From Octopus sinensis (Eukaryota), in assembly GCF_006345805.1 (NCBI RefSeq), contig NC_043000.1:71982001-72046000 (forward strand): a stretch of 64,000 bases of DNA, in the 5' to 3' direction. The position numbers were made by a program, and so were the translations under genes. This document shows, one piece after another, positions 6,536 through 63,334 of the stretch; the stretch's first letter is position 1; every line of letters starts with the position of its first letter. Under the pieces are notes generated by a model. That model worked only from the letters and a program-made list of their open reading frames with translations. It had not been told where the DNA came from and made no database searches.

Positions 6536-6599
6536 CTCATACATATATATATACACGCACATATACGCGCACGCGCACACGCACATAGACACACACAAA

Positions 6600-6836
6600 C
6601 ACACACATGTATTATGTACATATATATATATTGAAATACTTTGAAATGTTTAACTGAGGAAGATCTCACGCAATGGAAGCATTTCTTACTATATATTACG
6701 CAGACCTGAAACATACATATTAAGTGATTTGAAAATATCACTATTTGGTTTGACTTCATTATTAGAATTAAACGACTTGATGCCTGTACACTCTAGCCAG
6801 TTCAAGGATTCGGAGCAATCGGTTTCGATTTGAGTC

Positions 6837-6869
<33 letters not shown>

Positions 6870-6871
6870 AT

Positions 6872-6902
<31 letters not shown>

Positions 6903-7140
6903 ACACACACATGTATTATGTACATATATATATATTGAAATACTTTGAAATGTTTAACTGAGGAAGATCTCACGCAATGGAAGCATTTCTTACTATATAT
7001 TACGCAGACCTGAAACATACATATTAAGTGATTTGAAAATATCACTATTTGGTTTGACTTCATTATTAGAATTAAACGACTTGATGCCTGTACACTCTAG
7101 CCAGTTCAAGGATTCGGAGCAATCGGTTTCGATTTGAGTC

Positions 7141-7176
<36 letters not shown>

Positions 7177-7180
7177 ACAT

Positions 7181-7210
<30 letters not shown>
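6600..7210. repeat. Near-identical tandem duplication, period 304 bp
   Basis: 6605-6840 repeats at 6909-7144, and identical ORFs start at 6759 and 7063. Confidence 0.9.
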
Positions 7211-7230
<20 letters not shown>

Positions 7231-14450: not shown

Positions 14451-14451
<1 letters not shown>

Positions 14452-15387
14452 TAAGTAATTAAGGGTTTAGCAACGATTTGCCTCACCACACACCGAATTT
14501 AGGAATAGCAGTCAAGAGTTATAGCTATTCTTTCTACTAAAAGGGAGATCTCAGTAAAACCACAGCACTTGAAAGGCAAACACAGACAGGCAAGAGAGAA
14601 AGAAATGACGGCAATCTATCATACAATTTTAAGTCACCTACGGACGTACGTTTCGAAATTAAGTTTTAGGAAAGCATAAGAATTAGATAATTATGTCTTA
14701 CCCAACTTCTTTTCTCATCAGCGTAGGACACTACAATTATGAATAATTGTATATTAAATTTCGAGGTACTAGAAGGCATCATCTCAACTCAGTATCAGAG
14801 CGAGCTAAAGCCGTTACCAGTATCACCAAATTCAAAGTGTGAATGAAAGTTTGTGTCACCAACCTCTTCCCACCAGCGTGTAGCCAAGACAATATGTTGT
14901 GGTCATCTACTGGGATGAAATATGGTTATCAGTAATAATATAGGGTGAAATTAATTAATTTGGAATAATCATTAATTTCACCAAGTAGATTTCGGCATGT
15001 AAAAGCCTCATTCGAGGAAAGTTTAAGTAATACTAAGTAATTAAGGGTTTAGCAATGATTTGCCTCACCACACACCGAATTTAGAAATAGCAGTCAAAGA
15101 GTTATAGCTATTCTTTCTACTAAAAGGGAGATCTCAGTAAAACCACAGCACTTGAAAGGCAAACACAGACAGGCAAGAGAGGAAGAAATGACGGCAATCT
15201 ATCATACAATTTTAAGTCACCTACGGACGTACGTTTCGAAATTAAGTTTTAGGAAAGCATAAGAATTAGATAATTATGTCTTACCCAACTTCTTTAGCTC
15301 GCTCTGATACTGAGTTGAGATGATGCCTTCTAGTACCTCGAAATTTAATATACAATTATTCATAATTGTAGTGTCCTACGCTGATGA
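14451..15387 (-). mobile_element. HHR-containing 582-bp non-coding tandem element (retrozyme-like or non-autonomous PLE), locus 1
   Basis: CTAAGTAATTAAGGG starts at 14451 and again at 15033 (period 582). The partial second unit ends near 15295, followed by an inverted piece (about 15293-15387). The element abuts (TA)n and has a homologue at 61429. Confidence 0.85.
14637..14727 (-). ncRNA. Type-I hammerhead ribozyme with long stem II
   Basis: Minus strand reads CCTACG-CTGATGA-GAAA...(about 50 nt)...TTTC-GAA-AC-GTAC-GT-C-CGTAGG. It has a perfect 6-bp stem I, a canonical core, palindromic stem III (ACGTACGT) and a GUC triplet. Confidence 0.88.
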
Positions 15388-16249: not shown

Positions 16250-17170
16250 GACCTGCTCGAAATACGTGTTGAGTGACGAAATTGTTCTGCACGCACTAGT
16301 CCAGTGCGACTAGTGGGATTATGTCAAATACCTGCTCTCGTGTATAAGACAGATCCGACTATCAGCTGAGTCCATTGTAAAGATCATCTCTCTGCCTTCC
16401 TTTGAGTGGAAGAACACGCAATGTTTTTCTGCCTGGTGGTTTTAACGAAAGGTGACTTAGTGGTACTGGACAAGAACATCAGTGAAAGCCATACATTCAG
16501 ACTAGGTGTGGGGCGGTTAGAGGATTTCCTAATAAACTGCTGTTCTTTAGTGCTAGTGAGGGATTTGAAAGCTGTCTTCGATGCACGTTGGATGCTGTGG
16601 TGTTAACTGATAGGAGGTGCGGATGCAAAAGCTCCGCAAACCTGGCCAGACGTTTCCAACTGTTTGACTGGTACCGGCGGTTTCATCATATTTCTACTAA
16701 AAGTAGGATTATGTTGAAATGAAGATTTTGGTCTAGGTGTTTGCTAAGAAATTGGTGCTTGATCTCGGTGGTCTAGTCGGTGATGGGCAAATATGTGTCT
16801 TCTTGACAGTCTCCACCTCATGTAAAATATCATAGACAGAGTAGGTAAGGAGCTTGGCATGGGTGGGGACATTATTTATCGAAAGCTTTCGATAGAGTCG
16901 ACCATAAATTCTTGTCGACTGTCCTAACAGCAAGTGGTTTTGTCCCCGTTTTCAGGGATTGGATCACCACTGTGTACAAAGGCATCATCTCGGTCCGGAA
17001 ACTAAATGGCTACCTACTAGGACTATTCAGTATCATGGGCTCGGTCCCTCAATGTTGTTCCTTGTCTTCCCTTTTGTATGTACTGACTCTAGATCCACTA
17101 CTGCTGAAAATAGAGTTTCATGAGAATCTTGTACGAACTAGGATACATTGGCACATGCAGGCGACGTCAC
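16250..17170 (+). mobile_element. L1/Tx1-clade LINE ORF2 fragments (endonuclease and RT), decayed
   Basis: LVLVRDLKAVFDA resembles GDFNAVLD. GFVPVFRDWI..VY...NG.L...F.I..SVPQCCSLSSLLYVLTLDPLL resembles Tx1 SVRQGCPLSPLLY. Confidence 0.75.
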
Positions 17171-17174
17171 CCTC

Positions 17175-19700
17175 ATAGTCTTTTTCATATCCCAGAGTAT
17201 GGTTGCTTTCTCGTTTTCTGTGACCTTTTCTGGTGTGTGCCTATACCATCTTTTTTCTGTTGTTATTCCATAATGTTGGCATAGCTTCCAATGTATGTAG
17301 GTTCCAACTCTGTCATGTCTGTGAATATATTCCTTCTTAGCCAGGACTGGGCAGCTAGAGATAATATGATTTATTGCTTTTTGTCCATCTCCACATATTC
17401 TGCAGTTACTTGTTATATTTCTTTTCCTTACATGTTTTTGGTAATTTCTGGTGGGGAGGCTTTGGTCTTGTGCTGCAATTAAAAATCCCCCTGTCTCTGC
17501 TTTGAGTCCTGAGCTTCTCAACCATTTCTGGGATTTTTCTTTGTCTATTTCTTTTGTGTTTAGTTTAGTCCAGTATTTACCATGAAGGGGCTTTTCTTGC
17601 CATCGTTTTATCATGGTTCGTTTCTGTTCTATTTTTAGTTTGGATTTCATTTGTTTTATAGCTTTTGTTGTTTCTTCATCTTCTTCTTCTTCTTCATATT
17701 TATTAGGTGGTACAATTTCTTGTTTGTATTTGTCAGCTTCCTTAAATACTGAGAACAGTTTTTGTTTTGCTCATGTTTTGCCGCTATTTGTATCAGTTTT
17801 CCTTCCTTCTGAAGTAGATATTTCTGCAGTCCTATGGTGGTTATTTTATAGTAGTTTTCCAGCTGTATAAGGCCTCTACCACCTTCTATACGTTGTATAT
17901 ATAGTCTTTTTATGTCAGATTTTGGGTGATGCATCCTAGATCCTGTCATTATTTTTCTTGCTTTCCTATCTATTTTGGTCAGTTCATTTAGTGTCCAGTT
18001 AAGGATATTGTAGCTGTAACTTATAACTGGCACAGCTAAAGTGTTAATACCTATTATCTTGTTTTTAGCATTGAGCTCTGTTTTTAGTATTGATCTAACT
18101 CATCTATAATGTTTTTTTAAATATTTTCTCTTTCATTTGTGTGTTGTGTCTTATCTAGTTCATGGATTCCTAAGTATTTGTAAGTTTGGCTTTGGTCTAA
18201 TTCGTTTATTTCATTGGTTTTATCTAGTGTGATGTTACTACTCTTAACTAGTTTTCCTCTTTTCATGGTTACTTTGGCGCATTTTTCTAGTCCAAATTTC
18301 ATATCTATTTATTTGATAAATCCATGAACTGTCTTTAATAATGTTTCCAGCTGTTTGTCATTTGCAGCGTATAGTTTTAGGTCATCCATATATAAAAGGT
18401 GGCTGATCGTTTTGTCGTAACATTTATATCCGCATCCAGTTCTATTTAGCATATCAGATAGAGGTGACAGTGCCAAGCAGAAAAGGAGTGGAGAGAGCGT
18501 GTCTCCCTGGAATATTCCTCTTCTAATGGGGATGGCTTTGGTTTTCATGAGTCCCTCATTTGTTTGGAGCTGTAGCACTGTTTGCCATTTATTCATAGAG
18601 TGCCCTATGAATTTTATAATTGTTGGTGCTACTTTGTTAATGGCTAGTGTTTCGAGGATCGATGTGTGGGGGATGCTATCAAACGCCTTTTTGTAGTCGA
18701 TCCAGGCCATACTGAGGCCTTTCTTCTGTCTGTGGCTGTCTTCAGTTATGGCTTTATTAATCATTAGTTGATCTTTACAGCCATATGAGCCTTTGCGGCA
18801 TCCTTTCTGCTCTTCTGGAAACAGGTTGTTTTCGTCCAGGTGCTTGTTCAACCTTTGCGATATCACTGTAGTAAATGCCTTGTACATTGTAGGGAGACAG
18901 GTTATTGGTCTGTAGTTTTCTGGTTTTGCTGTCTCATTTGATTTGGGAATTAAGATGGTTTTCCCCTTCGTGAGCCATTCAGGCATTGTCTCTGGCTCTG
19001 CTAGTATGTTGTTAAAGTTTTCAGCCAGCTTTTTGTGCATTCCTGTTAGATATTTCAACCAGAAGTTGGGGATCTTGTCATGCCCAGGTGCCTTCCAGTT
19101 GCTTAGTCTTTGCAGTGCCTGGGTGACCTCTTCAGTTGTTATGGGGGTCCAAAGTTTCTCAGATGCTTTTTTTTTTGGTTGTTCGTTCGCCGACCATATT
19201 TCTCTCCAGAATTCTTCCACTTCTTCTGCCGTTGGTGCTGCAGTGATTTCTATTTTATTTTTGCCAAGTTCTTGGTAGAACTTTTTGGGGTTGGAGTTGA
19301 ACTTTTTGTTTTGTTCAAAGAAGCGCTGGCGTTTCTCGTACCGGCGGATCCTTTGTGCTTTGGCAAGGATATCTTGCTTCAGCTTTTCTTTTATCTCAGG
19401 TAAATCTTTTTCTGTGATGTTATATTTTTGTTTTCTTTTTGTTGCTCAGTAGCGTTGATTGTCTACTGATTTCATTTTTTTGTATTTTGTTTTGGATGTT
19501 ATTTATCCACAGGGTTTGTTTGGGTGGTGGTACTCCTGTTTGGATGGGTTTGAGTGAGTATCCAGCTTCTTTTGTGGCTGCAGTGGCTGCTGCGTATACT
19601 AAGTCATTTAGCGCAGTGATATCGCTTTTTGTTTCAGTGGCTATTAGTTCCGTGACGGCTAAGTTTATGCTGTTTGTAATTGGTGTTGTTGTTTCGTCTA
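17175..19700 (-). mobile_element. R4/Dong-clade non-LTR retrotransposon (RT plus zinc knuckle), frameshifted
   Basis: ORFs contain KAPGHD, NYRPITCL, EQKGC...GCKDQL, WIDYKKAFDS, GIFQGDTLSPLLF, LYMDDLK, FGLEKC and CRIC..HIISSC..RHD..ILWD. Confidence 0.92.
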
Positions 19701-32688: not shown

Positions 32689-32725
<37 letters not shown>

Positions 32726-32730
<5 letters not shown>

Positions 32731-34285
32731 TCGACTGTATCTTTGCCTCCCTAGTGGCTTCCCTCCCCTCCCACATCCACGACACTAATCATGCTCTCCG
32801 TCTCTTCAACTCTTTCTCCTTCCCTCCTTGCCCTTCTAGACTTCTCTTCACTCTTGATATCAAGGGTCTATATACGGTGATCCTACACAACGAAGAACTC
32901 CTTGTATTCAAACACTTCCGAAACCTTCGATCCAGTCCCCAATCTGACACCTCCACAATCCTTCGTCTGGCCGAATTTGTTCTCTCCCTCAACTGCGTCT
33001 CGTTCGCGGGATATTTTTACCAACACCTCTCGGGAGTGGCCGTGGGAACAAAAATGGGCCCCAACTATGCGAATCTGTTCGTTGGATATGTTGAGGCCCA
33101 AATATTCTCACGATTCACTCCCGAACTATACGGTCGTTATATTGATGACTCTATCGGGGTGACCTCGCTCTCGTGCGAACAACTTGACTCCTTCCTATCT
33201 TTTGTCCAATCCTTCTATCCTGTCTTCGAATTCTCCTGACTATTTCCAACACTCCTGTCGCATTTCTCGACATTTCGGCCAATGTACACCACTCCGTGCT
33301 CACTACCCCCATCCACTACAAACACACCGACTCACACTCACCATTCCTTACTCCCAATTCCTCCATCTGTGCAGGCTCTGCAGTGACAACCGTGACTTTC
33401 AGACTCATGGTTCTCTACTTCATCCTTTGTAGATATCCCCTCACCACTATCCACACAGCACTTGCCAGAGCACATTCCGTGTACCGGTCCTCTGCTCTCT
33501 CTTCCCGTACCCGCCCCACCGTTGCCCGTCTCTCATTTCCCCTCATCTACCCTCCACTCTGTCCCACCAACACACCATTCTTCGAACCTTCCGTCGATTC
33601 CAGTTCGACACCTCCACCTCACACATCTTCCCCAACCTACCCCTTCTCTCCTTCAAATGACCCCCATCCTGCGTGACCTCCTGGTCCGCAGTTTCTACCC
33701 TAAGCCCACCTCCCAACCTGGCTCGTTCCCCTGCTCCCGACCACGCTGCCGCACTTACCCCTACCTCTCCAATACTACCATCCTCACAGGCATTCATCAT
33801 CGTCCCTATCATATCACTGACTCCTTTATCTGCACTTCTAGAAACGTCATTTACTTCATCTCCTGCTCTTTCTGCCCTTCCCTATACATCAGTCAAACGG
33901 AACGTCGCTTGGCTGACCGGTTCATGGAACACCTCCGAGATATCAAACTCGGCAATGACACTCCGGTCTTGCGCCATTTCCGCTCTACCGGTCATTCATT
34001 ACAACACCTGTATGTGTTCGGATTGTCTTTGCACAGGATCCATCCGGATTCCCGCCTTCGCCGCGAACAAGAATTAATCTTCCTTCTTCGCCCTTTGCCC
34101 CACATGGGCTCAACTCTCCTCCACTCTTCATCTGACTCCTCTCCTCTCTTCATCTGACACCTACTTCCTCCCTTCACTCTTACTCACCTTCTGTCTTCAC
34201 TGATACTCAGCTTCTCGTTTCATTGATACCCCCCGACACCCCTTACTCCCACCCACTGCACCCACCCATCCCCACCCCCACCATA
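32726..34285 (+). mobile_element. Penelope-like element (Neptune-type) RT plus GIY-YIG, 5'-truncated and frameshifted
   Basis: HIHDT..LFTLDIKGLYT..GVAVGTKMGPNYANLFVG..RYIDD, then CSRPRC..CTSRNVIYFISCSFC..LYISQTERRL..RF.EH. Starts directly after (TA)n. Confidence 0.9.
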
Positions 34286-41126: not shown

Positions 41127-43101
41127 GACTTATACACGCCCTGATACCGTCGGTATCTACATATCAAATTTGAGCGCAATCGGATGGAGGATGCCCGAGA
41201 TCCTAGACTGACAGAACGGATTTTATATAATAGATTGTTGATATTTTGCTGAATGTTACTATTTTCTTTTAGAGACAGTTAAATTGTTCTGCTCTTTCAT
41301 AAATTCTCTTCATTTCTCAAATTACTCTATGTTTACTTACCAATCTATTATAATTGCTCATATTAATTACTAGGAAGCACACAGTATTTCCTTTTGCAAC
41401 CAAGTATATTAAAGGCTTACAAGCCAATATTGTGTCAATACTGTGTCCTTGCAAGGAAATAATATTTACGTTTCAGCTGACAGGAATGTGTTTAACATGT
41501 AAATGAACTTATCCAACAGTGTTTCACCGTTAAACTTAATGAGTATTTAAGCGATACGTTCGTAGGTAGTTGATGGGTTGGACGTGGTGCTGATGAAAGG
41601 GCAATAATTCTTGAAATATGCTTACACACCAATTACCTATTTTTTTCTATTTTCGATTGCATTGTTTACATAAACGTGTTCGCATACAAAACGTCATAAC
41701 TTACAGTGCTGGCTCTGAATTCTATAGAAAATCTATAGAGATAAACTTAAAAATATAATTACTCACTCCTGCAGTGCCTACTGCATGATACAGGAATAAA
41801 GTTGTTTTCAGAGTATGTATTGAAATTGCTGTCATTACTTTGTGTATTTTGAATATGTATTTTTAATCAAATTATTTTTTAAATGTTTCTTGATTTTGAG
41901 CTGAAAGTTTTATATCTTCTAGGCTACAAGGGTACCACCCAAACATAATAATATGAAGTAAGATATACTTTATCTAAATATCTAAGTGCTTTTCTATGAG
42001 CAGTGATTTACCATTTACATTGTAGAGGGTTTACAGCTAAAGCATATCTAAGTTTTAGAATTTAACTCTTAGAAACACATTAAAACTAAAATATGTGAAT
42101 GTTAATGTTTCCGCGTATTTTTTGCTTTTTAGTTGTGTAGTTGATCAGAAATAGAATCTAATCTCCTTTAGTCTATTCTTCAGTTCTTTTCTTTAGTTTG
42201 TTTCAGCCAAAACCATACTGGAGCACTACTTAGGTTTACAAAACTATTTTAGACTTTTAAAAACTTAGTAATTACAACTAAGTTATGAATAAATATAGAG
42301 TCATATCCGCATATTTAGTCTCAGCGATATTTGGGCACCAAGGGCTTTTCGGTAGTTTGGAATGAAGATCGGGGTGTCTGGTAGAATTGTTACTTGGAAA
42401 TTTATCAGAATCAGTTTACTGCCCTTCTCTAAGTAACCTGAGACTACTCGTTACAATGTAAACAAGCATGTGTCTCGGCAAATGTTATTCACAAAATGGC
42501 ACAAGGTTGACGACCTGAAAATAATTATTCGAGTACCAATAGAACATGAATATATATAAGTATGGTTTGTAAATAAATAGGCTATAAATAGTTTCGTACT
42601 TATCTGAATATGATCTTTCACATTATAATGTCTATAATTTATGTTACGATAATGGGGAAAGGATCCTATCCTTTTGATCTCTAAATTTTTGAATCTTTTA
42701 ATTTAGAGTAGATGATTATTTAATATATGCTTACAAAGTCTAATATTTAAACTTTATTTGTTAGATTGTATAATGGATTGACGCATAATATTGTTATATG
42801 AACAAGTAATACTTTGCATCGTTACATATGTAGGATAATAACACAGATTCAACCTCATAATCTCAATACATCACCTTTGTGATGTACTGAGGTTATAAGG
42901 TTGGATTATATAGTGCATTGTATATATAAGAAAAATAAACATTTAAATTGAATGGTCATTCAAAATACATCTCATATTGTGCCAAATATTCTCTTTATAA
43001 AGATTGTTCTATTCTTTCATAAATGGTGAACCAAGAGACCTAAAGACAAGTTAGACATCGTTTAGCTATTTAATGTACGGAAAAGCACACTATCAATACA
43101 T

Positions 43102-43492
43102 ACACTCCATCTCGTACTGAGTTCGACTTTGCCCTTCATCCTTTCGGGGTTGATAAAATAAGTAGCAGTTGCACACTGGAACCGATGTATTCAACTATCT
43201 TCATTCCCGCCAAAATTTCAGACCTTGCGCTTATAGTAGAAAAGAATATATACCCTTTATCTACCTCGCTCTGCTTCATCTTACGAATTCTTAATATGAT
43301 ATTCCTTATATATATATACATATATAAAGGTAGATAAAGGGTATATATTCTTTTCTACTATAAGCGCAAGGTCTGAAATTTTGGCGGGAATGAAGATAGT
43401 CGAATACATCGGTTCCAGTGTGCAACTGCTACTTATTTTATCAACCCCGAAAGGATGAAGGGCAAAGTCGAACTCAGTACGAGATGGAGTGT
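43102..43492. repeat. 165-bp near-perfect inverted duplication of local DNA
   Basis: 43102-43266 vs 43328-43492, one mismatch seen. Includes a SINE-D fragment and unique flank. Confidence 0.9.
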
Positions 43493-43500
43493 GTATATAA

Positions 43501-43531
<31 letters not shown>

Positions 43532-48739: not shown

Positions 48740-49498
48740 GCCGGGCGAAATGCGTAGCCGTATTTCGTCTGCCGTTGCGTTCTGAGTTCAACTTCCGCCG
48801 AGGTCGACTTTGCCTTTCATCCTTTCGGGGTCGATAAATTATGTACTAGTTACGCACTGGGGTCAATATAATCGACTGAATCCATTTGTCTGTCCTTGTT
48901 TGTTGCCCTCTGTGTTTAGCCCCTTGTGGGTAGTAAAGAAATAGAAATAGGCATTTCATCTGCCGCTACGTTCTGAGTTCAAATTCCGTCGAGGTCGACT
49001 TTGCTTTTTATCTTTTCGGGGTCGATTAAATAAGCACCAGTTACGTACTTGGGTCGATATAATCGACTTAATCCCTTTGTCTGTCCTAGTTTGTCCACTC
49101 TATGTTTAGCCCCTTGTGGGTAGTAAAGAAATAGGTATTTCGTCTGCCGCTACGTTCTGAGTTCAAATTCCGCCGAGGTCAACTTTGCCTTTCATGCTTT
49201 CGGGGTCGATTAAATAAGTACCAGATACGCACTTGGGTCGATATAATCGACTTAATCCGTTTGTCTGTCCTTCTTTGTCCCCTTTGTGTGTAGCCCTTTG
49301 TGGGCAGTAAAGAAATAGGTATTTCGACTGCCGCTATGTTCTGAGTTCAAATTCCGCCGAGGTCGCCTTAGCCTTTCATCCTTTCGGGGTCGACTAAATA
49401 AGTACCAGTTACGCACTGGGGTCGATGTAATCGACTTAATCCCTTTGTCTGTCCTTGTTTGTCCCCTCTATGTTTAAACCTTTGTAAAGAAATAAGAA
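48740..49498 (+). repeat. Head-to-tail tetramer of SINE family D (period about 184-191 bp)
   Basis: TATTTCGTCTGCCG-like starts at about 48761, 48952, 49136 and 49320. Each unit has the B-box-like GAGTTCAAATTCC and the core GTCGACTTTGCCTTTCATCCTTTCGGGGTCG. Confidence 0.9.
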
Positions 49499-53330: not shown

Positions 53331-53342
53331 TAAATATATATA

Positions 53343-53859
53343 TTACATGGGAAAATGCGAGCATGAAAGTAATATTCTTAAGATTATAAACCTGGAAAAG
53401 TACAGAACAAGTCATTACACCTGTAAGAGTATAGGAAAAACTATTACTTCAAGTAAAGTAAAGAATAAGAAACTTTTTACTTAAAATATTACAGCAAAGA
53501 TTGCCAGTTCTTCTAATTTATCACTCTTTACAGTTCTCATCTTTTAAATTTATTGTACAAAACTGTTCAGCTAACTTGTAAGTTTGTCTAATTAGTCACT
53601 TTTTTGTATTTCAGGTAGTAAATTAGCCAAATTCTACTTAAATAATTATAGTGTTATTTGTAAACTATAATAAAATATTTTTTAATATTCAAATTTTAAT
53701 TTTAACTGCAATATTTTTTAGTAAAACGTTTCTTATTCTTTACTTTATTTGAAGTAATTGTTTGTCCTATACTTTTACAGGTATAATAACTTGTCCTGTA
53801 CTTTTCCAGGTTTATAATCTTAAGAATATTACTTTTATGCTCGCATTTTTCCATGTAAT
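53343..53859. mobile_element. MITE/foldback element with ~160-bp imperfect TIRs
   Basis: ATTACATGGGAAAATGCGAGCAT... vs ...ATGCTCGCATTTTTCCATGTAAT. AT-rich and non-coding. Confidence 0.75.
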
Positions 53860-61303: not shown

Positions 61304-61621
61304 AATATATATATTACGGAGATGTACTCGCATAGCAAGTAATTTGATCTGAGATCGTGTGCTGAAACGAAAACAATTGCAGCGTGGAAGGTGTTTATAA
61401 GCCATATATATATATGTATATATATATACTAAGTAATTAAGGGTTTAGCAACGAATTGCCTCACCAACACACCGAATTTAGAAATAGCAGTCAAAGAGAT
61501 ATAGCTATTCCTTCTACTAAAAAGGGGGATCTCAGTAAAAACACAGCACTTGAAAGGCAAACACAGACAGGTAAGAAAGAAAGAATGAAATGACGGCAAT
61601 CCATCATGCAATTTTACGTTA

Positions 61622-61713
61622 CCTACGGACGTACGTTTCGAGATCAAGTTTTAGGATAGCGTAAGAATTAGAAAATTCTACTTTACCCGTACTTCTTCTC
61701 TCATCGGCGCAGG
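61622..61713 (-). ncRNA. Type-I hammerhead (CCGAUGA variant)
   Basis: Reverse complement of 62398-62489. Confidence 0.75.
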
Positions 61714-62397
61714 ATACTACAATTATGAATAATGTATATTAAATTTTGAGATACTAGAATGCATCATCTCAACTCAGAGCGAGCTAAAGCATGACCAGTA
61801 CCACGAAATTCAAAGTTTGAATGAAAGTTTGTGTCACCAGCCCCCTTCCACCCGCGTGTAGCCAAGATAAAATGCTGTGGTCATTTACTGGGATAAAATA
61901 TGGTTATCAGTAATAATAAAAGGTGAAACTAATTAATTAGGGATAATTATCAATTACACCAAGTAGATTTCAGCATGTAAAAGCCCCATTCGAGGAAAAT
62001 TTAAGTAATACTAAGTAATTAAGGGTTTAGCAACGAATTGCCTCACCAACACACCGAATTTAGAAATAGCAGTCAAAGAGATATAGCTATTCCTTCTAGT
62101 ATTACTTAAATTTTCCTCGAATGGGGCTTTTACATGCTGAAATCTACTTGGTGTAATTGATAATTATCCCTAATTAATTAGTTTCACCTTTTATTATTAC
62201 TGATAACCATATTTTATCCCAGTAAATGACCACAGCATTTTATCTTGGCTACACGCGGGTGGAAAGGGGCTGGTGACACAAACTTTCATTCAAACTTTGA
62301 ATTTCGTGGTACTGGTCATGCTTTAGCTCGCTCTGAGTTGAGATGATGCATTCTAGTATCTCAAAATTTAATATACAATTATTCATAATTGTAGTAT

Positions 62398-62489
62398 CCT
62401 GCGCCGATGAGAGAAGAAGTACGGGTAAAGTAGAATTTTCTAATTCTTACGCTATCCTAAAACTTGATCTCGAAACGTACGTCCGTAGG
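62398..62489 (+). ncRNA. Type-I hammerhead (CCGAUGA variant), long stem II
   Basis: CCTGCG-CCGATGA-GAGA...TCTC-GAA-AC-GTAC-GT-C-CGTAGG. Confidence 0.78.
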
Positions 62490-62784
62490 TAACGTAAAAT
62501 TGCATGATGGATTGCCGTCATTTCATTCTTTCTTTCTTACCTGTCTGTGTTTGCCTTTCAAGTGCTGTGTTTTTACTGAGATCCCCCTTTTTAGTAGAAG
62601 GAATAGCTATATCTCTTTGACTGCTATTTCTAAATTCGGTGTGTTGGTGAGGCAATTCGTTGCTAAACCCTTAATTACTTAGTATTACTTAAATTTTCCT
62701 CGAATGGGGCTTTTACATGCTGAAATCTACTTGGTGTAATTGATAATTATCCCTAATTATTAGTTTCACCTTTTATTATTACTG

Positions 62785-62849
<65 letters not shown>

Positions 62850-62888
62850 TATATATATATCTATATATATATATATAATATATATATA

Positions 62889-62956
<68 letters not shown>

Positions 62957-62957
<1 letters not shown>

Positions 62958-63334
62958 ACACTTAGTTGGCAAATATATGATACGGTTACGTACTGCTACT
63001 GTTTATATCTCGCTCAGAGATTTAATATAACATTGGCTCTCTTTCACGGGATCACCGATAGTGAGTCGTTAGAAAAATATATAGTTATTTGCGAGTGAAA
63101 TGAGCTCGCATCACTAGCTAGTGATTCAGACACTCTGAGGGCGGGTAACCACTCAGAAACTCGAGTCCGTGTGTATTACGTAAGACTTGAGATAGGAGCG
63201 ATGATCTCGTCTCGCAAATTTCTAATCGGACACAGGATGCGTGTCGTTAGCCAGCTGAAGAGATGTCCTCCTGGGGCTATAAACAACAGAAGCACTGTGC
63301 TATATAGGACGCCACACTTAGTTGGCAAATATAT
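62957..63334 (+). mobile_element. 356-bp non-coding unit with 22-bp terminal redundancy between (TA)n tracts, carrying a decayed HHR-like motif
   Basis: CACACTTAGTTGGCAAATATAT at 62957 and 63313. ACACTCTGAGGGCGG-GTAA-CCACTCA-GAA-ACTCGAGT-C-CGTGT at about 63130-63172. Confidence 0.5.

Follow-up and report, generated by a model that had tools for sequence, protein, structure and literature searches.

The window, 64,000 nt of Octopus sinensis DNA (NC_043000.1, positions 71,982,001 to 72,046,000, forward strand), carries two loci of one repeat. At locus 2 two arms of opposite orientation lie between (TA)n tracts. Locus 1 is likewise an inversion, as the original prediction had overlooked. The features are as follows.

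61405..61428, left (TA)n target tract
61429..62098, minus strand, reverse arm of locus 2, 1.15 units; outer (3') end at site A (..TTACTTAG followed by TATATA); 5'-truncated at about unit position 496
61622..61713, minus strand, hammerhead motif of the reverse arm, the same as in the forward arm
62097..62098, inversion junction with a 2-nt TA microhomology
62097/62099..62784, plus strand, forward arm of locus 2, 1.18 units; starts at a site A (TAG followed by TATTACT); outer (3') end at site B (..ATTACTG followed by TATATA)
62398..62489, plus strand, type I hammerhead motif, predicted cleavage after 62483
62682..62784, plus strand, tail of about 100 nt from site A to site B, at one outer end only
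62733..62770, plus strand, predicted AU-rich hairpin with GGTG/CACC closing, just 5' of site B; a similar hairpin is found in sister families
62785..62954, right (TA)n target tract
14451..15294, minus strand, reverse arm of locus 1, subfamily S1, canonical CTGATGA core, GAAA/TTTC, outer end at site A
15292..15387, plus strand, short forward arm of locus 1, cut off within the ribozyme core

The coordinates bear out the layout first proposed for locus 2, with 1.15 and 1.18 opposed units fused at about 62097, (TA)n on both sides and the monomer junction read through by both arms. The arms are identical at 587 of 589 aligned positions, the differences being one substitution and one 1-nt gap. Locus 2 belongs to subfamily S2 and, judged by its sequence, is a very young insertion, 99-100% identical to copies elsewhere in the genome. 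An RNA read through both arms would form 584-585 long-range pairs according to folding prediction; about 600 bp of dsRNA had been proposed for such a transcript.

A second, older hammerhead repeat family sits in the same (TA)n tract (62957-63332). It has a unit of about 357 nt, a terminal direct repeat and the motif GAAA CTCGAG TC CGTGTG. There are 2369 candidates, with tandem and inverted copies at other sites; the core is degenerate in the window copy and reads CTGAGGA or CTGAAGA in L297 and L299. Elsewhere in the window are tandem repeats at 48760-49476 (184 bp x 3.9) and 6589-7217 (304 bp x 2.1), further inverted repeats at 43091-43503 and 53342-53859 (arms of 176 and 145 nt) and, on the minus strand at 17138-19445, broken LINE-like reverse transcriptase frames recognised by eye. 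Positions 32691-34157 hold a decayed relative of an abundant young family of Penelope-like elements (PLEs; L280-L291). Visual inspection of six-frame ORFs of at least 110 aa, a cut-off that would miss short exons, revealed no host gene.

The hammerhead of locus 2 has stem I CCTGCG/CGTAGG, a bulged stem II of about 61 nt with the base GAGA/TCTC followed by GAAA, and a short palindromic stem III (ACGTACGT). Its core is CCGATGA, with U4C at 62405, compared with CTGATGA at locus 1; this change was missed originally. The two other differences reported between the loci are present in the sequence. The base of stem II is GAAA/TTTC at locus 1 and GAGA/TCTC at locus 2, a change of one base pair (62413/62469), and stem I reads CCTACG at locus 1 and CCTGCG at locus 2. 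The core and stems I-III were found in nearly all of 187 units, and U4C is present in subfamilies S2 and S3. U4C is reported to lower in vitro activity considerably yet to support viroid infectivity (PMC3088659). A ribozyme-compatible fold is predicted within 2-3 kcal/mol of the minimum. The motif scored below every Rfam gathering score, so it was identified from its core, its stems and its conservation across families.

A recent preprint on non-LTR retrozymes (bioRxiv 10.64898/2026.07.22.740005) takes at least two consecutive ribozyme units as the mark of an active copy. Many family loci have them; locus 2 has one motif per arm. With only one ribozyme per arm locus 2 would be unable to excise a monomer, and since any read-through from either side would make the antisense arm first, its ribozyme would be trapped in a duplex of about 585 bp. 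Locus 2 is thus likely a dead end and, taken singly, ordinary and likely inert.

We searched the 2.72-Gb genome for the family. The exact 18-nt ribozyme 3' motif GAAACGTACGTCCGTAGG has 784 matches genome-wide, and its reversed control has none. Similarity searches gave 2440 and 2613 candidates, 40 of each being scored. The loci examined were 80 best hits, among them both loci of the window, and 40 more taken in order of position along contig C1. The copies are dispersed, set in (TA)n, arranged head to tail in tandem, non-coding and without LTR-element features. Subfamilies are 5-10% apart and S2 is the youngest, with 1.4% between loci. The longest arm has 7.8 units and the longest locus 12.8; L040 (G000:C9:72821316-72828770) is a 7.4-kb palindrome of 5.8 and 7.0 units. 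Three sister families, B (558 nt, L163-L182), C (581 nt, L183-L227) and D (L149:6151-7571), have the A-to-B tail region in common, each with its own hammerhead-like motif.

The original prediction held that the monomer length stays at 582. That is so for the window, where markers are spaced 582 apart at locus 2 (61429-62011) and at locus 1 (14451-15033), and 582 is the mode in S1 (25/44 units). It fails for S3, where 15 of 25 units are 586-587 nt; S2 units span 573-591 nt, a spread to which assembly indels may add. No ORF longer than 51 aa was found in the tandem stretch examined, and an ORF with reverse transcriptase (RT) and GIY-YIG domains is absent. A length constraint or an endless ORF at 582 was rejected on the ORF scan and the variation in unit length. 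A link between U4C and longer arrays was also discarded: S2 arrays are longer than those of S1 (p = 0.0003), S3 also has U4C yet its arrays are not longer (p = 0.13), and age is confounded.

The class that suits the element best is the non-LTR retrozyme, and a PLE is its likely mobiliser. The literature that we searched on octopus hammerhead, Penelope and ribozyme repeats does not describe the family, though Repbase, Dfam or the supplements of papers may list it. It is very improbable that the repeats are instead the 5'-truncated ends (pLTRs) of an unsampled autonomous PLE. PLE insertions are mostly 5'-truncated and tandem, and 150 of 5030 GIY-YIG candidates were scored, which leaves room for such an element. 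That origin would have to account for head-to-tail units that run through up to 7.8 repeats with no ORF, and the PLE protein matches near sampled loci are unrelated neighbours or older targets.

Foldbacks are common in the family. In 17 of the 40 position-sampled loci a reverse arm is followed by a forward arm, and the polarity is always this divergent one. The outer ends fall at two sites. Site A is ..TTACTTAG before TATATA, and 41 of 68 site-A ends fall on one base, where the unit itself continues TA. Site B lies 95-113 nt beyond site A. One arm ends at A and the other at B in 38/38 foldbacks with both ends classifiable among the best-hit loci and in 12/12 among the position-sampled loci. 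For the combined 50/50 the probability against a 50:50 expectation is about 2e-15. The remaining loci, 42/80 and 28/40, have a single orientation or an unclassifiable end. L085 appeared as A/A in a coarse first pass and became B/A after 15-20-nt pieces were chained. Family B, 66% identical, uses the same two ends and is A/B in three distinct loci. The older family C, 61% identical, has two A/B and, in a coarse pass, two apparent A/A loci (L209, L215). The foldback is the usual insertion product of the family and not special to locus 2.

At the inner side, truncation points are variable and are joined directly. They are not significantly enriched at the ribozyme cut in either set (8/122, p = 0.075, among best-hit loci; 1/55 among position-sampled loci), so we rejected the cut as a preferred truncation point, and they give no sign of template cleavage. 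Five of 56 B-ended arms, that of locus 2 among them, start at a site A (p = 0.002). Such starts might reflect transcription initiation or blockage by the second primer.

The end sites bear on whether the locus 2 foldback is an assembly or chimeric-read artefact. Near-perfect palindromes are difficult to assemble, and none of the listed contigs from four short-read runs bridges the junction at 62098/62099. We nevertheless consider an artefact highly unlikely, because the unique flanks of locus 2 have no mirror symmetry, its outer ends are different sites, as the family rule demands, and similar reverse-to-forward joints of the family occur, at other positions, in short-read contigs of other samples. 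The two differences between the arms point the same way.

A DNA-level origin after insertion is another reading of the arrays and foldbacks: monomers alone would move, and satellite-type amplification and palindrome formation would follow locally. We regard this as improbable. In 8 of the 13 loci whose arms both hold a full unit, locus-private variants are shared between the arms. This counts in favour of the insertion model given below, but such homogeneity within a locus is expected from unequal crossing-over or conversion too. At L040 one variant is in 5/5 units of one arm and 0/6 of the other, as local amplification would allow, and the preprint cited above suggests local amplification of pLTR remnants. 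Amplification after insertion leaves unexplained the different fixed outer sites in 50/50 foldbacks, the identical divergent polarity in all of them and the presence of the longest arrays already in the youngest subfamily.

It was also proposed that RNA structure was under selection as the family spread. The two window loci on their own record a single event, so the claim depends on more copies. We built a tree of 111 of the 120 loci with paired columns masked and applied a rough, home-made covariation test (not R-scape). The third pair of stem II changes from A-U to G-C in at least three lineages: S2, a second clade in which a G-U copy is basal, and a group within S1 that the tree resolves poorly and in which there is a G-U copy too. 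G-U copies thus occur in two of them, and the sequence beside the pair differs among the three. Only 2 of 1210 column pairs reach three near co-changes. The position-sampled loci overturned the view of the stem II change as a single event. The second pair of stem II makes the same change in one old clade (2 loci). An A-C row at the covarying pair (L047) was traced to misalignment beside an insertion.

A hammerhead-like motif, built on other stems, is retained in sister families that are 61-66% identical. In family C the homologous position carries stem I CTGTA/TACAG and the core CTGAAGA, and stem II occurs with both GGAG/CTCC and GGGG/CCCC. Family B is a looser match: its core-like word, TTGACAA, would amount to a U3-A8 covariant, and the family also has ATTATA/TATAAT and one additional A ahead of GAAA. 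Changes per site on internal branches number 0.16-0.17 in the core and stems I and III and 0.37 downstream, a difference partly built in for the 40 loci picked by exact motif. The recurrent A-U to G-C change in stem II and the different stems of the sister motifs support selection on RNA structure in the family, so that the sequence comparisons uphold the prediction. The frequencies of U4C (43/111 loci) and of an A-C mismatch at the first stem II pair (4/111) count against strict selection for full ribozyme activity. In the tail RNAalifold found no consensus hairpin. The hairpin listed above is paired in 84% of cells and its covariation support is weak; three family-B rows are misaligned by one column.

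That the host retains the foldback because it supplies dsRNA for editing or small RNAs seems extremely unlikely. The predicted pairing is long, and about 6 of 40 sampled loci have a foldback of at least 400 bp, a rough count that may include other repeats. Against such a role stand the youth of locus 2 and its layout, which is the default product of insertion; the dsRNA itself is a folding prediction. Among the listed contigs that contain the family, none is on record as RNA. A>G places in short-read contigs were discarded as an editing signal, as they coincide with subfamily differences and contigs carry no information on strand, ends, level or editing.

The preferred reading is that locus 2 is a young non-coding hammerhead tandem repeat of the non-LTR retrozyme kind, whose foldback probably arose when a PLE reverse transcriptase/GIY-YIG endonuclease primed on both (TA)n strands. 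The element would be transcribed, and a PLE protein acting in trans would nick both strands of a (TA)n tract. Each target 3' end would pair with TA/AT at site A or site B of the element RNA. One cDNA would start at A on one target strand and a second at B on the opposite strand, and both would extend 5'-ward, round a circle made by the ribozyme or along an uncleaved multimer. They would stop at variable points and be joined through microhomology, which would unite them at their truncated ends. Either template would fit: when folded in circular form the monomer is well structured (z = -4.6 relative to 40 shuffles), yet truncation is not enriched at the cut.

A bolder version is conceivable but rather doubtful. 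Insertions would be made by an asymmetric PLE dimer whose subunits are obliged to start at different sites, one at A and one at B, and each subunit would go several times round a ribozyme-made RNA circle as it copies. The family would then be a genomic record of rolling-circle twin priming, in which the ribozyme was repeatedly tuned down (U4C, A-C in stem II) with its fold kept and the genome was seeded with hundreds of long dsRNA-forming foldbacks.

The genome is rich in young RT + GIY-YIG elements, which have frames of 760-1009 aa and end in (TA)n; for the 963- and 1009-aa frames Pfam matched RT only. By BLAST and tail profile, none of 74 PLE-bearing loci (150 of 5030 candidates scored) had similarity between our unit or tail and the ends of PLE copies. 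The search for a partner in these loci yielded only separate insertions of sister families. L219 and L071 proved to be insertions into PLE remnants. One PLE family (L280-L291) is young and very abundant, with 12306 candidates, about 97% aa identity, frames up to 1009 aa, pLTRs and a short hammerhead-like motif recognised by eye. It ends in (TA)n, and its end adjoins the element at L033. Another young RT + GIY-YIG family (L146-L151, L154, L155) has a 781-aa frame, an upstream 479-aa frame with no Pfam match and, seen by eye near its 3' end, a hammerhead-like motif with a TTGATAA core.

The sources compared here, as far as they were covered, state that the movement of retrozymes and the origin of inverted and tandem PLE insertions with a one-sided tail are open. 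A young ORF-less family with the full PLE insertion signature is structural evidence for insertion of retrozymes by PLE machinery, as multimers. The strict one-A-one-B rule turns a known qualitative observation into a testable mechanism and predicts sharply what the existing PLE assay in vitro should show.

Metazoan non-LTR retrozymes were defined by Cervera and de la Pena (2020, PMC7229834), who show circles and propose PLEs as the mobiliser, and the preprint (bioRxiv 10.64898/2026.07.22.740005) links them to pLTRs. Like them, the octopus family has non-coding, low-GC tandem units with one type I hammerhead each, dispersed dimers to multimers, a structured monomer and PLEs in the same genome. 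It shares a short palindromic stem III with the amphibian ribozymes that cleave as dimers. Its unit of 582 nt is longer than the 170-400 nt given in PMC7229834 and inside the 51-972 bp of the preprint. It differs in its stem II of about 61 nt and in its inverted arrays and tails, which the portions of those papers that we draw on do not describe.

The insertions resemble those of EN+ PLEs (Craig et al. 2021, PMC8557442). In that description partial tandems lie next to an inverted copy that is 5'-truncated, and a tail of 30-40 bp is often one-sided. The bias to (TA)n microsatellites and the hammerhead within the repeat are also alike. Unlike them, our family has no ORF, and its tail is about 100 nt. 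Frangieh et al. (2024, PMC11167929) report that the protein of the Poseidon element PAc nicks and extends both strands of AT-rich DNA in vitro, with starts at two sites inside the RNA between which the tail lies, and with ribozyme cleavage not required. Our family has an AT-rich target too, and under the proposed mechanism it would match PAc in the two internal start sites at the borders of the tail, in the extension of both target strands and in leaving room for insertion without ribozyme cleavage. For PAc, that paper gives a start site with no difference between strands and no target homology, whereas here a single insertion always has its two arms at different sites, with TA/AT microhomology at the ends.

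L1 twin priming yields a reverse arm followed by a forward arm, with both 3' ends outward. The octopus foldbacks have this arrangement, and the 5/56 B-ended arms that start at a site A are a further likeness. In contrast to L1, there is no poly(A), most B arms pass site A, and the arms overlap in sequence because the template is repeated.
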